A DNA stretch of 59,781 nt. Origin: Fistulifera solaris. Its lineage: Eukaryota. This document shows, one piece after another, positions 3,412 to 16,247 of the stretch (position 1 is the stretch's first letter; the number at the start of each line of letters is the position of its first letter). The stretch lies in contig AP026151.1 of assembly GCA_030295235.1 (NCBI GenBank), forward strand, positions 868,001 to 927,781, written 5' to 3'. The translations under genes and the position numbers were made by a program. The notes below the pieces were generated by a model. It saw only the letters and a list, made by a program, of their open reading frames with translations. It ran no database searches and was not told where the DNA came from.

Positions 3412-4733
3412 AAATCGGTGTTTTGCATATAACAGAAATTCTGTGGTAGTTCCAGAATTCTGGAATCGATGTTGTCGATCAACCCGAGATTTTGTGGTCG
3501 TTCCAGAAATTCTAAAATCGGTGATTTGCGTCAAACAGAGATTCTTTGATCGTTCCAGAAATTCTGGAATAGGTGTTTTGGCTCAAACAGAGATTCTGTC
3601 GTCGTTCCAGAAATTCTAAAATCGGTGATTTGCGTCAAACAGAGATTCTTTGATCGTTCCAGAAATTCTGGAATAGGTGGTTTGGGTCAAACAGAGATTC
3701 TGTGGTCGTTCCAGAAGTTCTGGAATCGGTGGTTTGGGTCAAATCGAGATTCTTTGATCGTTCGAGAAATTCTGGAATCGGTGGTTTGGGTCAAAGTGAG
3801 ATTCTGTGGCAATTCCAGAAATTCTGGAATCGGTGTTCTAGGTCAAACCGAGATTTTGTCGTTGTTCTAGAAATTCTGGAATCGGTGGTTTGGGTCAAAC
3901 CGAGATTCTTTGATCGTTCGAGAAATTCTGGAATCGGTGGTTTGGGTCAAACAGAGATTCTTTGATCGTTCGAGAAATTCTGGAATCGGTGTTCTGGGTC
4001 AAACCGAGATTTTGTCGTTGTTCTAGAAATTCTGGAATCGGTGTTTTGGGTCAAACAGAGATTCTGTCATCGTTCCAGAAATTATGGAAACGGTGCTTTC
4101 CGTCAAACAGAGATTGTGTGGTCGTTCCAGAAATTCTGGAATCGTTGGTTAAAGTCATACAGAGATTCTGTGGTCGTTCCAGAAGTTCTGGAATCAGTGT
4201 TTTAGGTCAAACAGAGATTCTGTGGCAATTCCAGAAATTCTGGAATCGATGTTTTGGGTCACACAGAGATTCTTCCAGAAATGCTGGAATCGGTGTTTTG
4301 GGTCAAACAGAGATTATGTCGTCGTTCCAGAAATTCTGGAATCGGTGATTTGCGTCAAACAGAGATTATGTCGTCGTTCCAGAAATTCTGGAATCGGTGA
4401 TTTGCGTCAAACAGAGATTATGTCGTCGTTCCAGAAATTTTGGAATCGGTGATTTGCGTCAAACAGAGATTCTGTGGTCGTTCCAGAAATTCTGGAATCG
4501 GTGTTTTGGGTCAAACAGAGATTCTTTGATCGTTCGAGAAATTCTGGAATCGGTGTTTTGGGTCAAACAGAGATTTTGTCGTCGTTCCAGAAATCCTGGA
4601 ATCGGTGTTCTGGGTCAAACCGGGATTGTGTGGTCGTTTCAGAAATTCTGGAATCGGTGCTTTGCGTCAAACAGAGATTGTGTGGTCCTTCCAGAAATTC
4701 TGGAATCGGTGTTTTGGGTCATTCAGAGATTCT
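3412..4733 (+). repeat. Tandem satellite with a 52-bp unit (about 25 copies) and palindromic core TTCCAGAAATTCTGGAA
   Basis: Unit is approximately CCAGAAATTCTGGAATCGGTGTTTTGGGTCAAACAGAGATTCTGTGGTCGTT. Period of 52 measured at 4325->4377. Degenerate GAAATTCTGTG copies lie upstream at about 3190-3290. Confidence 0.95.
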
Positions 4734-5186: not shown

Positions 5187-6477
5187 ATGACAGGAATGAC
5201 TTATCGGCTAGTATTCGCAACAATTGCATCCGCAGCACTTCTGTTGTCGTTCGCGACAGCTTTTCAGCCGCTGCAGCCGCAGCAAACACCGAAGCGAATG
5301 GCTAACTTGAACGTTCAAAGCTTAGCCGCGCCGACCGAAGAGAAAAAAGACAACAAATGCGGCATCATGGCCGGCTACCGGAATTCCCAATCACAAGATA
5401 TTAACCAAAGAACAAGAGCAAAAACTAGGCAAAGCGATTCAGAAATCACGGAAATTACGGCAGTGGCTTGAACAGCATTCAACAAAAGCACAGACACCGC
5501 TCGATGACGCTGCGATTGTTTATGCGCTTTCTCCATCGATTACTTCGCACGAATCCTCTTTGTATCACAACTACACGCAAGCTCAAATCGATACTATTTT
5601 AGAGAAAGGGCATCACGCCAAGCAGACTTTGATGATGTATAATCTTCGATTAGTATCGAAAATTGCCAAGAAATGGGCGTACATGACACACAACAACAAT
5701 GGCGATTACATGTCGAATGCCAACGATGGCTCGCTCACGCGTCCTTCGGTACAAGAAGCCATTCAAGAAGGTATTGAAGGACTCGCAAGGGCCGCCGATC
5801 GTTACGATCCCACCAAAAATTGGCGATTCTCAACGTACGCGACGTATTGGATCACCGACTCGATTCGGAACTGCTACGCATCGGCAACGAACGGCCACGC
5901 GATGCGATTGCCCTCGGCGTATTACGAAACCGTCGTGCGGTACAAGTCTCTCATCAAAGAACAGTATCACCTTCGCCAAGCACCACCGCCGATGGAAGAT
6001 CTCGCGGCACAGATGGACATGAAGCTTCCTCGGTTGCAAAAGATTCTTCGAGTCGCGCAGCCTCCGCTGTCGTTGGATGGGCCGACGTCTTCGTTTGCGG
6101 GTGCTGGAAAGTCGGGCATTGCGGAGGCATCGACCACCATGCTCGGAGAGATTCTGGTCATGGGAACGTCGGAAGATCCGGAAGCACTGTTGGAATGGAG
6201 TATGCTACGAGGTGCATTGGAGCACGCGTTATTGACCCAATTGACACCGCGCGAACGTGACGTTGTACGCTTGCGTTCGGGGTTCGATGATGGCGTGACG
6301 AGAACGTTTCGAGAAGTTTCCGAGGATTGTTACGAAGGCAAAATAAGTCCGGTTCAAGTTCAGGTCACATGGACCAAGGCCCTGAAGAAGCTTCGTTCTC
6401 CGCAAGCTTTGTCGAAGTACGGATGGATGTCCTACTTTGAAATGTGCGACGTGGATCCCGAGACTGTTACATTGTGA
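5187..6477 (+). CDS. Nuclear-encoded plastid RNA polymerase sigma-70 factor (1-nt indel at the A-run near 5345)
   Basis: Signal peptide plus ATAF|Q plastid-type motif. After the shift comes region 1.2 HKILTKEQEQKLGKAI. Region 2: YNLRLVSKIAKK and IQEGIEGLARAADRYDPTKNWRFSTYATYWI. Region 4: LTPRERDVVRLRSG...KALKKLR. Confidence 0.92.
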
Positions 6478-7107: not shown

Positions 7108-7340
7108 CGGTTCCAGAGCTTGTGGAGTGTACACAGAATATCTGTATAAATGGTCAATATCACTACTTCCAGAATTTCTGGACTTCTTACAGGATTTCTG
7201 TATGCTTCAAAACGACAATTCCAGAATTTCTGGAAGCAGCACAGAATTTCTGTATTATTGAAACTGATTCCAGAATTTCTGGAACAAGCAAAGTTTGCAT
7301 TATTTTGCTTTTATTGCTTCAATTATTATTTTTCCAGAAT
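7108..7340 (-). repeat. Short degenerate array of the same satellite family, in reverse orientation
   Basis: TTCCAGAATTTCTGGA(A) alternates with CACAGAATTTCTGT at about 50-bp spacing, which is the reverse complement of the 3412-4733 unit. Confidence 0.8.
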
Positions 7341-7799
7341 ACGTTGTCGACAAAAGTGCGAATGATCTTATTGACAGCAACCGTGCTGTCCATAAGATGA
7401 AACGCATCCGACATTCAATGAGCAATGAAGTAGACTATGAAGCTATGAAGTAATCGATTATCGATTGCTGTGAATTGTGATGGTGAATAAATGATGAAGA
7501 ATGAAGAATGAGCGCAACTCGTTTTTTCAATTGCAAACTACAAAGAAGCAGACTGTCACTGCCGTTTATTGGAAGCAAGCCAGCAAGCCGCAAAGATAAT
7601 TCGAAGGCCGAGTGAATGAGACGAACCGGATGGCGCGCAATGCGCAATGAAAGATCGAATGAATGAAGTGTTCAACAATCTTCTCGAGACCCGCACCATT
7701 GGATGTGCTGGTGGCTTCTCAGCCACACAATCTTGTGCGATCTTTCAATAGATCTTTCGTCACAATCCTGTCCTCTCAATAAATTTGCTTGACAACACC

Positions 7800-8585
7800 A
7801 TGAAGATCGGTAACTACGCCATCGCCTTTGTGGCCCTTCCTACCTTGGCCTTTGGGGCTCGTCATCCTACCTGCCAGACGTTCACGGAGATTTACGCCGA
7901 TGGAACTGAACTTTGCGAGAAGATGTTCTCCGATGCCTTTGTCGTCGTCCCCGACGACCAACCAGCTTATCACATGTGGTTCTTCGACACGGATAACAAT
8001 CCGAACGATCAAGTTACTCGTGATATCTTCGGCACCGAGCCTCTCGAAGAATGCAACGTGCAGTACTTTCACAAACAAGTGCCAAGCCCGGAAGGTGATG
8101 ACATGGGCGAGTGTCACCCCTGGAAGCAGCGCTCTTGTTGCCACGGTGAAACCGTCGGAAGCGTCGAAGAGATGAAGGCCCTTTACGGAAGTAGCTGGGA
8201 TCGCTGCGGAACCATGTCGGAAGCTTGCGAGCGTTTCTTCGTCTTTGAGCTTTGCTTCTACGAGTGTGAACCCTCGGTCGGTTTGTTTCGTCGCTTCAAC
8301 GATAGTCAGACGGATCATCCTGACTTCAACACGTGGCAGCTCTATCAGATGCCCATGAAGAAAAGTTACTGTGATGCCTGGTTCGATGCCTGCAAGAACG
8401 ACTTCTTTTCCGAGGAGCGCTTCTCGACGATCAAGGAAGAGAAGGAAGTGAACAAACTTGGCGTCTCGTTGGGTGTCATCGGGGCATTCGCTTTCCTTCT
8501 TTGTCTCTTCTCCTCGTTCTTGGTCCACCGTGAACGCAGCGGCAAGCCCGTGTTTGTCGCTGAGAAGGCGAACCCGGTGGCTTAA
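7800..8585 (+). CDS. Folate receptor/riboflavin-binding-protein family (FOLR-like) protein with signal peptide and C-terminal TM helix
   Basis: Motifs HKQVPSPE, CHPWKQRSCC, WDRCGTMSEACERFFVFELCFYECEP and CDAWFDAC match the Folate_rec Cys pattern. Intact ORF with TM GVSLGVIGAFAFLLCLFSSFLV. Confidence 0.9.
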   Translation: MKIGNYAIAFVALPTLAFGARHPTCQTFTEIYADGTELCEKMFSDAFVVVPDDQPAYHMWFFDTDNNPNDQVTRDIFGTEPLEECNVQYFHKQVPSPEGDDMGECHPWKQRSCCHGETVGSVEEMKALYGSSWDRCGTMSEACERFFVFELCFYECEPSVGLFRRFNDSQTDHPDFNTWQLYQMPMKKSYCDAWFDACKNDFFSEERFSTIKEEKEVNKLGVSLGVIGAFAFLLCLFSSFLVHRERSGKPVFVAEKANPVA

Positions 8586-8633
8586 CTCGTTCTGTGAGAT
8601 ACGTGTTGCAACATGGATAATATGAAATGATAC

Positions 8634-8748
8634 TCTTGCCGCGGGAGCTTTGTGACGTGGGTATTGGCTGAGAGATTAAAGAGTCGAAAGATTCTTTGTT
8701 GACCGTTCGAACCTGAACATGGTAATGCATGCGAAAGGGAAGGTGAGA
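8634..8748 (+). ncRNA. TPP (thiamine pyrophosphate) riboswitch aptamer in the 3' UTR of FOLR-like copy 1
   Basis: P1 TCTTGCC/GGTGAGA; P2 GCGG/CCGT; GCTGAGA pyrimidine-sensor motif; P3a hairpin AAAGAGTC-GAAA-GATTCTTT; GAACCTGA-ACATGGTAATGCATG-CGAAAGGGAA pyrophosphate arm. Confidence 0.9.
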
Positions 8749-8867
8749 TGTGTCACGGAAATATTATCACGAAAGTGTTGCTATGAGGACGTTTAGTAAG
8801 ATAACATAGTAGTGAAAAGTGATTCTTTATTGAATGTTTCTATTGTCTATTGCGCGTTTACTCGTCA

Positions 8868-9909
8868 TCATGATCTACTTCGAATATTTCGCCATGCTTC
8901 TCGCATCCGTCGTGCCTGACCCTCGGTGAAAACATCGTCACAGCCTAAAGGAGCGTAATCCATAATGTTGTCCAAAGGGTCTGCACCCGGTCGATCCGGG
9001 CAACTATCGGGCAGCGGGTTGGGACATGCACCAATGATTCTTCCATAGTACCAGCTTTGTGCGTTCGTGTCGTCTACCAAGTCGCCTGGTGAACATCCAC
9101 CGTCAAACGTGTGAAGTAGATTCAGCCAGTGTCCTGTTATGGAACAAGCGTCGACCAGTGAGCATTCGCCCACGAAGAGAAACACAAAAGCTGTACGACT
9201 ATTTCGCAAACTTACCGACTTCATGTGCCAGTGTCGTTTTATCGGTCGCACAATCCGTATCGACAACGATGCCGTCTCCCTTCCCCATAGCCTTGGCATT
9301 TTCCGCCAAATTCGCATATCCGCAATAGCGGCCACCAAACATCCTGGCTGCTTTGTAGTAGACATTGAGTGTTTTGAGATTCCCTTTTCTATGTTTCTTT
9401 TCCATATTCTTTTGTTCGAAAGTATTCCATTCCGAATCATACCAGATTTTATCTACTACGCGATTCGTCGCGACGACATTCAGCTGAAAGCCGGTCGAGA
9501 GAAGGAGTTGGTTAGTTATATCAATGTTTTCTTGTAAAATTTCATCCGATAAAAAGCCGGTGTCGTTATCTTTTTGAATGGCGTGGATATATGTGGTGAT
9601 GTTGACAAAGCCGCCATTTTCCGGACCGAAGTCTTCATCATCAATATCACCCCAAGGGTTGCATCGAAACAGACGATTCTTCGAGTTTGACCTCCTTTCC
9701 TGCTCATATTGAGCACGGGATAAACGCTCTTGCTGTGCGACAGCCATTTCTTCAATGGAATGAACATCGGGCGCTTGAAATCCACAGCCTTGAGGAGTAT
9801 CGGAAAGATCTCGATGATGGTGATGGTGATGGTGAAAGCCATGATGCTCATGCGCGAGGACAGCGGAGGCTGTAAGAGCACAGATAACAACGGATTCGAT
9901 TTGCATCAT
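8868..9909 (-). CDS. Secreted M43 (pappalysin/ulilysin-like) zinc metalloprotease with a poly-His tract, copy 1
   Basis: Signal peptide, HEHHGFHHHHHHH, Cys-switch-like GCG. Intron 9215-9134 splits HEV|GHWLNLLH. Also GDLVDDT and the NIMDY Met-turn, then FTEGQARRM. Confidence 0.92.
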
Positions 9910-10677: not shown

Positions 10678-11793
10678 TTATTTTTGACACTGTGAGACAT
10701 CTTTACATACAAAAGACAAGTGAATCAAGCCGTCGCTTATTAAGGGAAAGGATTTTGCCGGATGCGGCGGATCAGCTCTTCCAAGGCCGAAGATGCGTTC
10801 TGCATCGGAGCGCCGGCACTTTCCCAAGCGAAGAATCGGCGTCAGAGCCGGAGGAGCCGGCAATGGCGGCGGAAGCGTCAGATTCATCCGTAAACACTGC
10901 CTCATCCAATCAAGCGCGTCGGCTTCATGCTCATTGCGTAACTGATGAAACAAGGAATCAGAGAGAAGGGCTTGCGTCCGCAAATGCAGAAGCTGCTGAC
11001 TCAATACCGATTCTTGACTGGGAAATTGCGGAACTGCGAAACTTTGATTAGAGAGAGGTTGCATCCGACTCCCATGGTTAGGAGCAGCGTCGACCAGGCA
11101 AATTGTGTTTTGCTTCAATGCAGGCACCTTCGTTGCGGCCTTCTTCACTACGGGGCGTTTCGTTGTTGCTTTACTGGCACTTTTGATTTCACAGAGCTGT
11201 TCCGGCTGGTCACGACAAAAGTTAGGATGCGAAAACACCTGACAATTAATAGGAAAGCCATAGAGAGTCGGCGGTGACTTTCGAAACCTCCAGCGGTATG
11301 CCTTCCGAACGAAACTTTCGTATTTCACGTTGCCAAAGAACCTCCAGAGCCATTTCCCATAGAGAGCATTCGGGTCACGGATGACGACAGCAGTTCCATT
11401 GAGAGCCCAAAAGATTGCTTCCTGCTCCATTTTTCGACCAGCACCGGCGCATACGCGCTCGATATAAGTCATCATCAACATGAACTGATGGGAGCAACGA
11501 GGGCATAAAGTGTGAAACAAACTCGAATTATGATGCTACAATGTGCAATAATTTCTTACCTTCTCCGGGAACGTGAGTATGCTGTCGAAATCTCGCGTGT
11601 ATGCGGGAATGTGTGTTGTGGGTAGATGATTTATTGCGTGGATGAACTCGCTGGTGTTACGAGCCGGACGTGGGCTCTTTGATGCTCCCTCCACTGGACT
11701 TGCCACACTATCTGACTTCTCAGACTGAGTATCCTGGGCAATAGGTTTGGCATCTTCCACTTGGGGCTTTTTGTTGTTGTGAAGATCTTCCAT
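10678..11793 (-). CDS. Heat-shock-factor-type DNA-binding domain protein
   Basis: Exon 1 ends TFPEK, then a GT-AG intron at 11559-11485. HSF DBD motifs IFWALNGTAVVIRD, FFGNVKYESFVRKAYRWRFRK and FSHPNFCRDQPE. Confidence 0.88.
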
Positions 11794-14022: not shown

Positions 14023-14865
14023 ATGAAGATTACGAACTTTGCTATCGCCTTTGCGGCCCTCCCTACGTTGACAGGGGGGAGCTCGTCATTCCTCCTGTAA
14101 GCCGTTTACGGAGATTTACGCCCATGGAACCGATCTTTGCGAGAAAATGTTCTCCGATGCCTTTGTCGTCGTCCCCGACGACCAACCAGCTTTATCACAT
14201 GTGGTTCTTCGACACGGATAACAATCCGAACGATCAAGTCACTCGTGATATCTTCGGAACCGAGCCTCTTGAAGAATGCAACGTGCAGTTCTTTCACAAA
14301 GATGTTCCGAGCCCGGAGGGCGATGACATGGGCGAGTGTCACCCCTGGAAACAGCGCTCTTGTTGCCATGGCTCTACGGTTGCCAGTACCGAGGAACTCA
14401 AGACGCTCTACGGCGGCGGCCCGGACAAGTGCGGAGTCATGTCGGATGCGTGCGAACGTTTCTTTGTTTTTGAGTATTGCTTCTACGAGTGCGAGCCCTC
14501 GGTCGGTCTCTTCCGCAAGTTCAACGATAGTCAGACGGATCATCCGGACTTCAACACCTGGCAGTTGTACCAGATGCCCATGAAGAAAAGTTACTGTGAT
14601 GCGTGGTTCGATGCCTGCAAGAACGACTTTTACTCCGAAGAAAGCTTCACGTCGGAAGAACCCAAAGAAGTTAACAAGCTCAGCATCTCGATGGGTGTCA
14701 TGAGTGTGCTTTTTCTTTTTTCTTTGCGTCTTTTCCGCGTTCTTGATCCACCATGAACGTAGTGGTAAGCCTTTTTTGGTACCACAAAATCGGTTCCTCC
14801 GGCTGAAGGCGATGTCGGTATTTAAAAAGACGGATTTTTGTAGCAACGTTGATATTGCGAAATGA
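14023..14865 (+). pseudogene. FOLR-like paralogue, copy 2, with three +1 homopolymer insertions (pseudogene or assembly error)
   Basis: Collinear with 7800-8585. Extra bases in the G-run near 14075, the T-run near 14191 and the T-run near 14715 break the frame. No other stops appear once these are corrected. Confidence 0.8.
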
Positions 14866-14866
14866 C

Positions 14867-14986
14867 ACTTTTGCCGCGGGAGCTTTGTGATGTGGGTAAT
14901 GGCTGAGAAATTAATGGAGTCGAAAGATTCTTTGTTGACCGTTCGAACCTGAACATGGTAATGCATGCGAAAGGGAAGGCAAAAGT
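14867..14986 (+). ncRNA. TPP riboswitch aptamer in the 3' UTR of FOLR-like copy 2
   Basis: Same core as 8634-8748. Perfect 9-bp P1 ACTTTTGCC/GGCAAAAGT, which differs in sequence from copy 1 but still pairs. Confidence 0.9.
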
Positions 14987-15124
14987 ATTATGAAACTAAA
15001 ACCATCCATGTTGTTACAATGCAAAATCGTGGTGAAGAACTTGTCTACGAATGTATTATGAATATAGTATAGGTGTGGTTTACTTTATGAATGTCGCTAT
15101 CGCCAATATAATGAATCAATTTCT

Positions 15125-16247
15125 TCACCGGTTGCGAATGTTGTTCCAGGCTTCTTGCATTCGTTGGGCTTGGCCTTTGGTGAATATATCATCGCATCCC
15201 AAGGGAGCATAATCCATGATGTTGTTCAAAGGATCCGGCCCTGGTTGATTCGGGCATGTATCCGGCAATGGATTGGGACAAGCACCGCTCGTTCGTCCAT
15301 AATAAGACTTTTGCGCATTGGTATCGTCCACTAAATCTCCAGGGGAACACCCACCCGAAAACGTGTGCAACAAGTTCAGCCAATGGCCTTAAAAGGAAAA
15401 TACAAGACGGCAAGTCAGCGCAATGTCATCCTCTTCTTTTACGAGGGTCGTGGATTACTGAACGTACCGACTTCATGTGCCACGGTCGTGCGATCCAACG
15501 CGCAATTGATATCAATGGTGACACCATCACCGTTTCCTACCGCTGCAGCATCTTCGGCAAGATAAGCATAACCACAGAATCTACTGCTCCCGGAAACGGC
15601 AAGCTTGAAATAAATGTTGAGTGTGTTGAGGCCTCCCCTTTTCAGCTTAGCCTGCATTTCTCTTTCTTCCGCCGATCCTGATTGTGCTTGGAACCAGTTG
15701 TCGTTTTGTGCACGGTTAATGGAAATGACATTGATTTGAAATCCGGCCGATGATAGTAAGCTGTTCGCGAGTTGAATACTCTGATTCAGTGTGCTGTCGG
15801 AAAGAAACCCTTCTCCGTTCGTTCGAGAGACGGCATGCACATAAGTCGGAATAGAGACTTGAGAGTTCCAGTTACCACCGCCACCGCTGCCGCTATCATC
15901 ACCGCCATCGCTTCCGCCACCACCGCCCGTGTCAGTATCGTCTCCAGGATTCCAAGCACTTCCTCCTCCGCCAAAGAAATAGAACAACCGCCTTGCTGTT
16001 GTTCATATTGCCGCTGTTGTAATGCGAACCGTTCTTCTTCGACACGAGCGACTCGCTCTTCCTGTTCGGCCTGTAATTGATAAATTTCGTGCACGGCCGG
16101 TTCGTGGAAGCCACAACCTTCCGGTGTTTGGGCCAGCAGTTCTCGCAAACGACGGTCTCCGTGATGGTGGTGTTCATGGGCCCGTACAAGCGCTGGTGTT
16201 ACTAGAAATAGAAGAGTAAAGCATGGTATTGGATTGAATCTGCGCAT
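15125..16247 (-). CDS. Secreted M43 metalloprotease, copy 2 (Gly/Asp-rich linker; 1-nt indel near 15985)
   Basis: MRRFNPIP signal peptide, HEHHHHGDRRL, EGCGF. Intron at the same position as copy 1 (HEV|GHWLNLLHTF), then GDLVDDT and NIMDY. Confidence 0.87.

Follow-up and report, generated by a model that had tools for sequence, protein, structure and literature searches.

The ORF at nt 7800–8585 of the window (the whole stretch of DNA that was analysed, 59,781 nt from contig AP026151.1 of the diatom Fistulifera solaris) very probably encodes a circularly permuted folate-receptor-like protein. Judged from its sequence, the last 55 or so residues of the canonical ligand-binding-type domain have moved to the front, directly behind the leader, and are followed by a junction of about four residues and then by the canonical core. 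The gene product is best explained as a type I membrane protein from the folate-receptor-like family of algae, whose published names are ATS1 (green algae) and FOLR (diatoms). Taken as a whole, the reading towards which we lean is that of a permuted type I membrane receptor, linked to thiamine, whose expression is tied to a TPP aptamer. That FOLR-like genes are linked to TPP aptamers has been published before (PMC4260697, PMC9544697), and what is new here is the permutation; a search of the literature for folate receptors with a circular permutation found no published account.

The coding sequence (ORF call; forward strand, as are all features described here) specifies 261 aa, with no intron needed, and the product is 95% identical to a 261-aa F. 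solaris protein named folate receptor. It opens with a hydrophobic leader (aa 1–19, nt 7800–7856; Kyte-Doolittle peak of 2.27 over aa 8–18) that is a probable signal peptide. A hydrophobic N-terminus lies a few residues ahead of the first Cys in all aligned relatives; for the F. solaris FOLR proteins, SignalP 4.1 is reported to have called no signal peptide (PMC9544697). The moved module, here called the tail (aa 23–74, nt 7866–8021), corresponds to approximately residues 147–205 of FOLR1/2, as indicated by phmmer and BLASTP matches and a pLDDT of 84–95 over aa 21–60, and its residues W60, F61, F62, N67, P68 and N69 are invariant across 64 relatives. The gap between the two matched stretches (aa 75–78, nt 8022–8033) is the short junction from the old C-terminus to the old N-terminus. 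Next is the core module (aa 79–204, nt 8034–8411), equivalent to FOLR1 residues 9–130 according to Pfam, phmmer, BLASTP, Foldseek and VIA. An acidic/basic linker of low confidence (aa 205–219, nt 8412–8456; alignment, and pLDDT below 50 for aa 208–218) stands in place of the C130–C147 loop and everything beyond it. A transmembrane helix is predicted at aa 220–242 (nt 8457–8525), where hydropathy in 19-residue windows reaches up to 2.46 (aa 216–245) and the AF2 model has a helix at 219–246, and is followed by a conserved cytosolic motif, E-x-x-G-x-P-x-F (aa 245–252, nt 8532–8555). In the alignment of 64 relatives E245, G248 and F252 of this motif are invariant and P250 is present in at least 90%. 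The protein is likely to be a membrane receptor with its ectodomain outside the cell.

Membership of the family is clear from Pfam PF03024 (Folate_rec; E 5.6e-36; 124.4 bits, the cut-off being 29.8), which matches in two stretches; the colinear order of that model, core and then C-terminal part, is absent, and separate profiles made for the tail (T) and the core (C) read the protein as T-C. The first-pass annotation had proposed a permutation and advised that the two halves be aligned separately to the receptor; in sequence searches the N-terminal piece matched the C-terminal module of FOLR and the remainder its N-terminal core. Against solved folate receptors, phmmer places query residues 79–204 on chain residues 4–125 or 9–130, and residues 23–74 on 147–205. 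Similarly, BLASTP against a starfish FOLR of canonical order (P0065) aligns residues 82–209 to 28–151 (E 8e-23) and residues 24–72 to 168–215 (E 2e-11). With both programs returning matches in swapped order, the match of the N-terminal piece is far beyond chance.

Structural comparison covers the core. The best Foldseek match of the AF2 model is 4lrh (E 3.3e-06), and VIA-align superposes the model on FOLR1 over about 126–132 residues, all within the core (model residues 78–216), with a Z of 7.4, which the tool rates as middling; a control with a canonical relative (P0152) against 4lrh gave 185 residues and a Z of 20.3. Both are sequential aligners, and aa 23–76 stay unaligned in them. The tail is the region of highest pLDDT in the AF2 model.

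Ahead of the membrane helix there are 12 cysteines (residues 25, 39, 85, 105, 113, 114, 136, 143, 152, 156, 191 and 198), while a thirteenth, C235, lies inside the helix. This count agrees with the earlier claim of an ectodomain with 12 rather than 16. The sixteen-cysteine framework of FOLR forms eight disulfides in the FOLR1 structure. Twelve of the 16 positions are kept and the equivalents of C113, C187, C130 and C147 are without Cys, the norm in the family being 14. Loss of the cysteines of the VPLC and GRC motifs, also noted at first pass, is borne out by the phmmer alignment, which puts K187 and A56 at those positions. Two of the retained residues, Cys191 in the core and Cys39 in the tail, are kept or lost together: among permuted units 223 have both, 18 have neither and 3 are discordant (Fisher p 5e-24, with units treated as independent and relatedness uncorrected), and the replacement pairs are W/A, F/A and A/V-L-I. 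Since the tail cysteine and its core partner are lost together, and since tail pLDDT in the model is high, the moved module probably still packs against the core.

The swapped order is common in this family. Among 348 collected relatives 273 are permuted (272 TC and one TCC), as are all 101 new matches recovered by a profile search; permuted holders include diatoms, a pelagophyte, a dictyochophyte, dinoflagellates and amphioxus, and the sources include chromosome-scale animal contigs. The survey of relatives for the same order or for tandem domains, which had been advised at the outset, found both, the tandem forms being eight proteins with two to five C-T units and four of the type C-T-C. Together with the swapped-order matches and the paired loss of tail and core cysteines, the distribution bears out the permutation. 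It would have come about when a gene with two domains in tandem shed its first core and its last tail. P0084 and P0108, both with two domains, belong to a canonical clade (support 99) within the algal group, and the AU test does not reject a single origin for the permuted order (p 0.73). In free trees the canonical-order proteins P0110 and P0129 fall among permuted ones, P0110 pairing with P0122 (support 96), so that the order may have switched more than once. As canonical, tandem and permuted forms are all extant, the family offers a good case for the study of how permutations arise and what they change.

What changes together with the order is the way the protein is held at the membrane. A hydrophobic helix follows the domain in 235 of the 273 permuted proteins, and 199 of these carry E-x-x-G-x-P-x-F, a motif that none of the 38 canonical proteins has. 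A hydrophobic stretch is present in 25 of the canonical proteins, 23 of which end no more than nine residues past it, and this GPI-like, motif-free end is absent from all permuted forms checked. On these sequence comparisons the change of anchor to a predicted membrane helix with a cytosolic motif goes with the permutation. In the F. solaris protein the chain leaves the domain at the site of the canonical C130–C147 loop and runs through a linker into a single predicted membrane helix, beyond which lies a short cytosolic tail. Together, the different anchor and the conserved cytosolic motif point away from a passive binding protein and towards a receptor that signals or undergoes sorting.

The pocket appears to be kept in part. 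In the alignment E150, Y154 and F43 (or W) stand at FOLR1 D81, Y85 and W171, in keeping with the initial observation that the acidic pterin-binding position is retained as Glu, and over the permuted units the D81 column has E in 240/244, the Y85 column Y in 241/244 and the W171 column W or F in 240/244. In contrast, R103 is replaced by N177 and R106 by Q180, and the loop carrying H135, K136, W138 and W140 is absent; in FOLR1, R103, R106 and H135 are described as making hydrogen bonds to the pterin, and K136, W138 and W140 as contacting the glutamate tail (PMC9055165). The first-pass annotation had read this as a rewired fold with a ring pocket but no folate-tail site, and the alignment fits that description. 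However, the lost disulfide and the short loop also turn up in every one of the 19 algal units of canonical or tandem order that were examined. With the loss of the disulfide and of the folate-tail loop common to algal relatives of canonical order, the remodelling is not a result of the permutation but older than it or independent of it. The loop with the other lost cysteine pair and the HKGWNW residues is absent at the break here, as had been claimed, but most permuted relatives keep the C130 cysteine (Cys in 227 of 244 permuted units at that column, Ser in only 4). On the alignment, the missing loop with its cysteine pair is peculiar to the Fistulifera-like clade, and in the family at large the permutation break falls just after the short loop.

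A TPP aptamer was said to adjoin the gene, and one is found on the same strand, 46 nt past the stop codon (nt 8631–8758). It matches the full model (1–105) of Rfam RF00059 with an E of 7.6e-08, at 49.7 bits, below the Rfam gathering score of 54.3. The window contains a tandem paralogue, copy 2 (nt 14023–14825), detected by tblastn of P0003, which requires three frame changes in this assembly (frames 1, 2, 3, 1, with breaks near 14082, 14191 and 14735) and has its own aptamer (nt 14866–14994; RF00059, E 9.4e-09, 57.8 bits, above the gathering score). A 63-nt aptamer core is 100% identical between the two copies and its flanks have diverged; the coding DNA is 84–90% identical. In a supplementary table of PMC9544697, the two aptamers of a homologous F. 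solaris locus are assigned to convergent metalloprotease genes and not to FOLR; the current data reassign these two published aptamers to the FOLR genes.

A same-strand TPP aptamer was found by Rfam (E <= 0.001) at 58 of 79 related loci, 18 of them downstream and 40 upstream of the gene. Sixteen of the 18 downstream loci are most like diatom proteins and 36 of the 40 upstream ones most like dinoflagellate proteins, which places the aptamer in the 3' UTR of the diatom-like and the 5' UTR of the dinoflagellate-like genes. At that threshold 21 of the 79 loci are without an aptamer, several of them on contigs with less than 200 nt of flank, and rescanning 20 aptamer-less loci at E <= 1 gained a single weak match. 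A regular-expression prescreen had flagged 48 of the 79 loci, including some chance matches within genes (L049, L052), and was replaced by the Rfam scans. The association of gene and aptamer is thereby much widened, to two algal lineages and two UTR positions. The aptamers of THIC and SSSP in P. tricornutum and T. pseudonana are described as unresponsive to thiamine (PMC9544697), so the aptamer may not regulate in diatoms, and we consider it somewhat doubtful that it actually does so in this one.

From the gene–aptamer association, a thiamine-related ligand is on balance slightly favoured. The ectodomain would bind thiamine, its moieties or its breakdown products, an aminopyrimidine such as HMP being the obvious candidate. 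The bound compound would occupy the ring pocket that has been kept, with its acid at the D81 site and its aromatics at those of Y85 and W171. Such a receptor would concentrate the ligand at the cell surface, from where it would be handed to a transporter or taken in by endocytosis via the cytosolic motif, and its expression would be tied to cellular TPP through the aptamer. In Micromonas, ATS1 is reported to rise 80-fold without thiamine (PMC4260697). The wider aptamer association makes the idea of a thiamine-related ligand directly testable with a small soluble ectodomain.

It is improbable, but conceivable, that the protein binds no small vitamin and instead recognizes another protein, as Juno does, or handles a lipid or sterol in the manner of the NPC1 N-terminal domain, its gene being co-regulated with thiamine status and no more. 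In both sequence and fold Juno is no more distant than FOLR, the Pfam NPC1_N model gives a weak match (E 0.0049, below the cut-off), and signalling or sorting is what the conserved cytosolic motif points to. The family also has members in amphioxus, and TPP riboswitches are not known from animals; given the permuted amphioxus proteins, a tie to thiamine may not hold throughout the family. Near-invariance of the pocket-floor residues over 244 permuted units, however, would be unexpected in an unused pocket, and a riboswitch is generally found on a gene whose product makes, carries or uses the ligand (PMC9544697).

Continued binding of folate, another pterin or riboflavin, as in animal relatives, with the TPP aptamer a relic or serving an unrelated purpose, is quite improbable. 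It draws on membership of PF03024, on the pterin-site acid and two stacking aromatics that are kept, and on riboflavin-binding protein being an equally close solved relative (E 4e-16; Z 7.2), and the unresponsive aptamers of two diatom species (PMC9544697) would suit a relic. The equivalents of R103, R106, H135, K136, W138 and W140 have nevertheless been changed or deleted, and a relic would be expected neither to keep 63 nt identical between paralogues whose coding DNA has drifted to 84–90% nor to recur at 58 of 79 loci, in two UTR positions and two algal lineages. That the swapped order is an artefact of assembly or gene model, or the stump of a two-domain gene with a vestigial leading piece, is close to refuted, since, although tandem-domain relatives exist and copy 2 is frame-disrupted, the ORF is uninterrupted and opens with a hydrophobic leader, 273 of 348 proteins, drawn from many sources (chromosome-scale animal contigs included), share the order, the tail has invariant residues and loses its cysteine together with the core, and public contigs from four runs of one study, whose status as RNA is a guess, match the stretch with 0 differences.

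Among relatives of known function, FOLR1 is GPI-anchored, riboflavin-binding protein is a secreted carrier, and Juno has lost folate binding. Human FOLR1 and FOLR2 (PDB 4LRH, 4KMZ) share with the diatom protein the Pfam family, the core fold, 12 of 16 cysteine positions and the D81/Y85/W171-type residues; the diatom protein differs in its swapped module order, in having N and Q for R103 and R106 and no H135–W140 loop, and in being anchored by a predicted membrane helix with a cytosolic tail instead of GPI. Chicken riboflavin-binding protein (PDB 6HCE) has the same fold and family, re-tuned to another vitamin, but in canonical order. Juno/IZUMO1R (PDB 5F4E, 5JKA), which shares the fold and matches about equally well in sequence, is likewise canonical and binds a protein, not a vitamin. 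Micromonas ATS1 (Algal Thiamine Sensitive 1) is a FOLR-like protein whose gene has a TPP riboswitch and is thiamine-responsive in that alga (PMC4260697), and diatom FOLR genes of Halamphora sp. and F. solaris (FisN_9Hh048) belong to the same family, have a 3' UTR aptamer and have been proposed to act in receptor-mediated uptake (PMC9544697). The latter paper makes no mention of a permutation ('permut', 0 occurrences). Canonical order and GPI-like ends are seen in a green-algal relative from Cymbomonas (P0135) and in the clade to which it belongs, unlike the permuted diatom form.

Sensing and uptake of vitamin B1 and its precursors by marine algae are only partly understood, with one validated transporter, SSSP, and the FOLR-like/ATS1 genes have been listed as 'function unknown' since 2014 (PMC4260697, PMC9544697). 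More tentatively, and as a proposal that we regard as rather unlikely in its entirety, the permuted membrane-spanning FOLR-like proteins could be the missing high-affinity receptors with which diatoms, dinoflagellates and other marine algae scavenge picomolar thiamine or pyrimidine precursors. Moving the exit of the chain to the mouth of the pocket would have allowed the lipid anchor to be swapped for a helix and an E-x-x-G-x-P-x-F sorting signal, coupling capture to endocytosis, and one animal lineage, amphioxus, would have acquired the same receptor.

Neighbouring genes encode an M43-type metalloprotease, an HSF-type DNA-binding protein, an ABC-2 transporter and a guanylate cyclase with a CHASE domain, none of them thiamine-related. 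The best feature matches in the ESM Atlas are FOLR-like clusters, with scores of 0.82–0.85, below the level that the tool treats as more than a lead. Some contigs of the public runs span the stop codon into the aptamer (nt 8495–8717 and 8482–8755), which is not counted as evidence of transcription, and in two of the four runs cover is confined to nt 7738–8829.

The ORF at 7800-8585 (+) is uninterrupted and encodes 261 aa that match the folate receptor family PF03024 of Pfam in two stretches (E 5.6e-36; 124.4 bits, cut-off 29.8). All matches in a search of solved structures (folate receptors alpha and beta, Juno, and riboflavin-binding protein) also fell into two pieces, invariably in swapped order: residues 79-204 of the protein correspond to chain residues 4-125 (or 9-130), and residues 23-74 to chain residues 147-205. 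The swap recurs with a starfish folate receptor (FOLR) protein of canonical order found by homology search (P0065), where query residues 82-209 align with 28-151 (E 8e-23) and 24-72 with 168-215 (E 2e-11). The first-pass annotation had proposed a permuted order; since both halves match solved receptors and the starfish protein in swapped order, that observation is correct and statistically solid. Judged by these alignments, the circular permutation is real. Three further details also agreed with that annotation: 12 cysteines lie ahead of the membrane helix (with C235 as an additional one within it), K187 and A56 occupy the positions of two replaced cysteines in the alignment to solved receptors, and a glutamate, E150, stands at the acidic pterin position, D81 of FOLR1.

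The protein begins with a hydrophobic leader (aa 1-19, by hydropathy), followed by the moved C-terminal module of the canonical domain (the tail, aa 23-74), a junction of four residues and the N-terminal module (the core, aa 79-204), both modules being delimited by alignment to canonical FOLR. A charged linker of low model confidence leads from the core to a membrane helix (aa 220-242, from hydropathy and the AF2 model) and a short cytosolic tail with the motif E245-x-x-G248-x-P250-x-F252. Across 64 aligned relatives, E245, G248 and F252 of this motif do not vary and P250 hardly does; W60, F61, F62, N67, P68 and N69 of the tail module are likewise invariant.

Model confidence, an aligner shortfall and cysteine covariation stand in for direct evidence that the tail, as predicted, remains in the fold. 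The AF2 model (mean pLDDT 74.6, pTM 0.65) is most confident at aa 21-60 (84-95). Foldseek and VIA-align are sequential aligners, and only the core of this model was aligned to FOLR structures, by Foldseek over 119-127 columns (4lrh, E 3.3e-06) and by VIA-align over 126-132 residues (Z 7.4, model 78-216). For P0152, an algal relative with the canonical order, the model aligned with 4lrh over 185 residues (Z 20.3; model 26-223, chain 13-208), and the shortfall between the two models matches the moved module in length. Cys191 of the core and Cys39 of the tail are at positions that we take to be those of the FOLR1 C117-C167 disulfide, and C25-C136 is presumably FOLR1 C153-C67. Among 244 permuted domain units, Cys191 and Cys39 occur together in 223, are missing together from 18 and disagree in 3, of which two are alignment gaps. 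The replacements are size-complementary pairs (W/A, F/A, A/V-L-I), and the losses are spread over several separate clades of the tree; the co-loss gives a Fisher p of 5e-24, uncorrected for relatedness.

A survey of FOLR-like proteins, which the first-pass annotation had suggested for algae, found the same order to be widespread and tandem-domain forms to occur as well. Two profiles built on relatives of the window protein, for the tail (aa 23-76) and the core (aa 82-204), were used to score 348 proteins collected by a representative search (best 150 of 626 matches at E <= 0.001) and three word-index searches. The permuted order, tail-core, was found in 272, with one more in which the core is partly duplicated; 38 were canonical (core-tail), 25 had only a core (mostly fragments), 4 were core-tail-core, and the core-tail unit was present twice in 6, four times in 1 and five times in 1. 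The permuted members of named origin belong to the diatoms Fistulifera, Nitzschia and Cylindrotheca, a Bacillariaceae MAG, Pelagophyceae sp. CCMP2097, Pseudopedinella elastica, the dinoflagellates Prorocentrum cordatum and Polarella glacialis, and three Branchiostoma species (contigs up to 43 Mb). In the nearest canonical clade, only one of the collected proteins has a named source, the prasinophyte Cymbomonas (P0135).

Trees inferred from the core and tail columns combined divide the family (support 100) into an animal-type group of canonical and tandem forms, the starfish protein among them, and an algal-type group containing every permuted form and one clade (support 97-99) of canonical and two-domain proteins. 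Free trees place two canonical proteins, P0110 and P0129, amid the permuted ones. A tree constrained to keep the permuted forms together was likelier than the quick free tree and was not rejected (AU p 0.73), so that a single origin of the permuted order is compatible with the data, but not proven. The permutation may have arisen by the textbook route to circular permutation, in which a domain is duplicated and the outer halves are then lost, since the tandem arrays in both groups would fit it; no direct intermediate was identified among the 348 proteins scored. Five tandem canonical domains are present in P0067 (1671 aa) and four in P0078 (1105 aa), and the unit-1 tail and unit-2 core of P0067 are co-linear with the window protein over 180 residues.

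The amphioxus members (P0214, P0244, P0259, P0271, P0278, P0293, P0331, P0332, P0338) are several paralogues on chromosome-scale contigs, permuted and membrane-anchored with the same cytosolic motif, and form one clade (support 98) within the permuted algal group; they may stem from gene transfer or from ancient inheritance. In P0329 and P0334, cysteine-rich somatomedin-B repeats (PF01033) follow the permuted domain and replace the membrane helix.

The lost disulfide and folate-tail loop had been tied to the rewiring, but a site table places both losses in canonical algal relatives also. Cysteines at the C113/C187 columns are absent from 244/244 permuted units and from 19/19 algal-group units that are canonical or tandem (the C113 cysteine is kept in 28/28 animal-type units), and the long H135 to W140 loop is short in canonical algal proteins too. 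Only the Fistulifera-like clade has lost the C130-C147 pair entirely, the C130 column having Ser in 4 and Cys in 227 of the 244 permuted units. The permutation is real, but it did not bring about the remodelling of the pocket. As far as can be read from sequence, it is the type of anchor that goes with it. A hydrophobic helix lies past the domain in 235 of 273 permuted proteins, 199 of which also carry E-x-x-G-x-P-x-F, a motif present in 0/38 canonical proteins. Where canonical proteins have a terminal hydrophobic stretch, the chain ends <=9 residues beyond it in 23 of 25, and these ends resemble a GPI signal or a simple C-terminal anchor. In the permuted order the chain no longer leaves the domain where the tail module ends but at the loop lining the FOLR1 pocket entrance, which may bear on how the pocket is oriented to the membrane.

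According to PMC9055165, the pterin ring of folate receives hydrogen bonds from D81, R103, R106, H135 and S174 and is stacked by Y85 and W171, while W102, K136, W138 and W140 grip the glutamate end. In the 244 permuted units, D81 is replaced by E in 240, Y85 is Y in 241 (Y154 in the window protein), and W171 is W in 204 and F in 36 (F43). R103 has become N in 234 (N177), R106 is Q in 187 (Q180), S174 is A or S (A46), and the 135-140 loop is absent from the permuted family, including the window protein. With an acid below two aromatic plates and the tail site missing, the pocket would fit a small amino-substituted heteroaromatic ring, which we infer to be the aminopyrimidine of thiamine or HMP.

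A TPP aptamer (8631-8758) lies on the strand of the gene (+), 46 nt past the stop, as a full-length Rfam match (49.7 bits, E 7.6e-08). The gene has a tandem paralogue at 14023-14825, 6.2 kb downstream, whose protein is 80% identical and equal to the F. solaris FisN_9Hh020-type protein P0003 and which has its own aptamer at 14866-14994 (57.8 bits, Rfam). This second copy is readable only with three frame changes in the assembly (near 14082, 14191 and 14735); it is either a pseudogene of recent origin or the product of single-base errors in the assembly. Between the copies the 63-nt aptamer core is 100% identical, a further 76 nt 86% and the coding DNA 84-90%; beyond the aptamer, the alignment is poor. 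Downstream of each copy, in convergent orientation, lies an M43 (pappalysin-type) metalloprotease gene whose product has a His-rich N-terminus (8868-9909 and 15786-16247, both -), and therefore the entire ~6.2-kb unit has been duplicated. Contigs from public runs stop either side of the aptamer core (window 8697-8760; loose ends at 8697, 8701, 8752 and 8760) and continue as other sequence, as expected if other loci of the organism carry the same core.

Scanning metagenome contigs with the family alignment gave 79 loci, every one of which is co-linear with the query in its permuted order. In 58 of these (13/20, 17/20, 16/20 and 12/19) Rfam detects a TPP aptamer on the strand of the gene (E <= 0.001), counts that refer to contigs rather than species because some loci, such as L059-L061, are near-duplicates. 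The aptamer is downstream of the gene in 18 and upstream in 40; by best tblastn match to ten named proteins, 16/18 of the former are diatom-like and 36/40 of the latter dinoflagellate-like. A rescan at E <= 1 of 20 of the 21 aptamer-less loci, several on contigs with little flank, gave one weak match (L023, E 0.011). Dinoflagellate-like loci (40 among L021-L076) have a 5' UTR aptamer with a very short P3 stem and scores up to 77 bits, whereas those of diatom-like loci are long-P3 aptamers in the 3' UTR.

A Micromonas FOLR-like gene with a TPP riboswitch, up 80-fold without thiamine, was named ATS1 by McRose et al. 2014 (PMC4260697). Llavero-Pasquina et al. 2022 (PMC9544697) describe TPP aptamers on FOLR genes of Halamphora and F. 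solaris, suggest receptor-mediated endocytosis, and report that in two other diatoms the THIC and SSSP aptamers are unresponsive to thiamine. Permutation is unmentioned in the available text of both papers ('permut' has 0 occurrences in that of PMC9544697), and literature searches for a FOLR-type permutation found nothing relevant in print. In the supplementary table of PMC9544697, the two aptamers of the homologous F. solaris locus are tabulated under the convergent metalloprotease genes. The window aptamers are on the same strand as the FOLR-like genes and opposite the M43-type protease ORFs, and therefore belong to the FOLR-like genes. The window protein is a new structural variant within a known family of unsettled function, with a thiamine-related compound as its putative ligand. 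Permuted FOLR-like proteins are candidates for a role in vitamin B1 scavenging.

Neighbouring ORFs encode a guanylate/adenylate cyclase with a CHASE domain (165-1976, -), a sigma-70-like factor (5632-6477, +) and an HSF-type DNA-binding protein (10678-11481, -), none of the three being thiamine-related. A weak miRNA-like Rfam match at 7220-7281 proved to be a minisatellite repeat. This 52-bp minisatellite, built around the near-palindrome CCAGAATTTCTGG (41 matches to the pattern against 0.11 expected), occupies 3555-4703 and 7169-7282, with ~23 units in one orientation in the former array and three oppositely oriented units in the latter, which lies ~520-630 nt ahead of the start codon of the FOLR-like gene.
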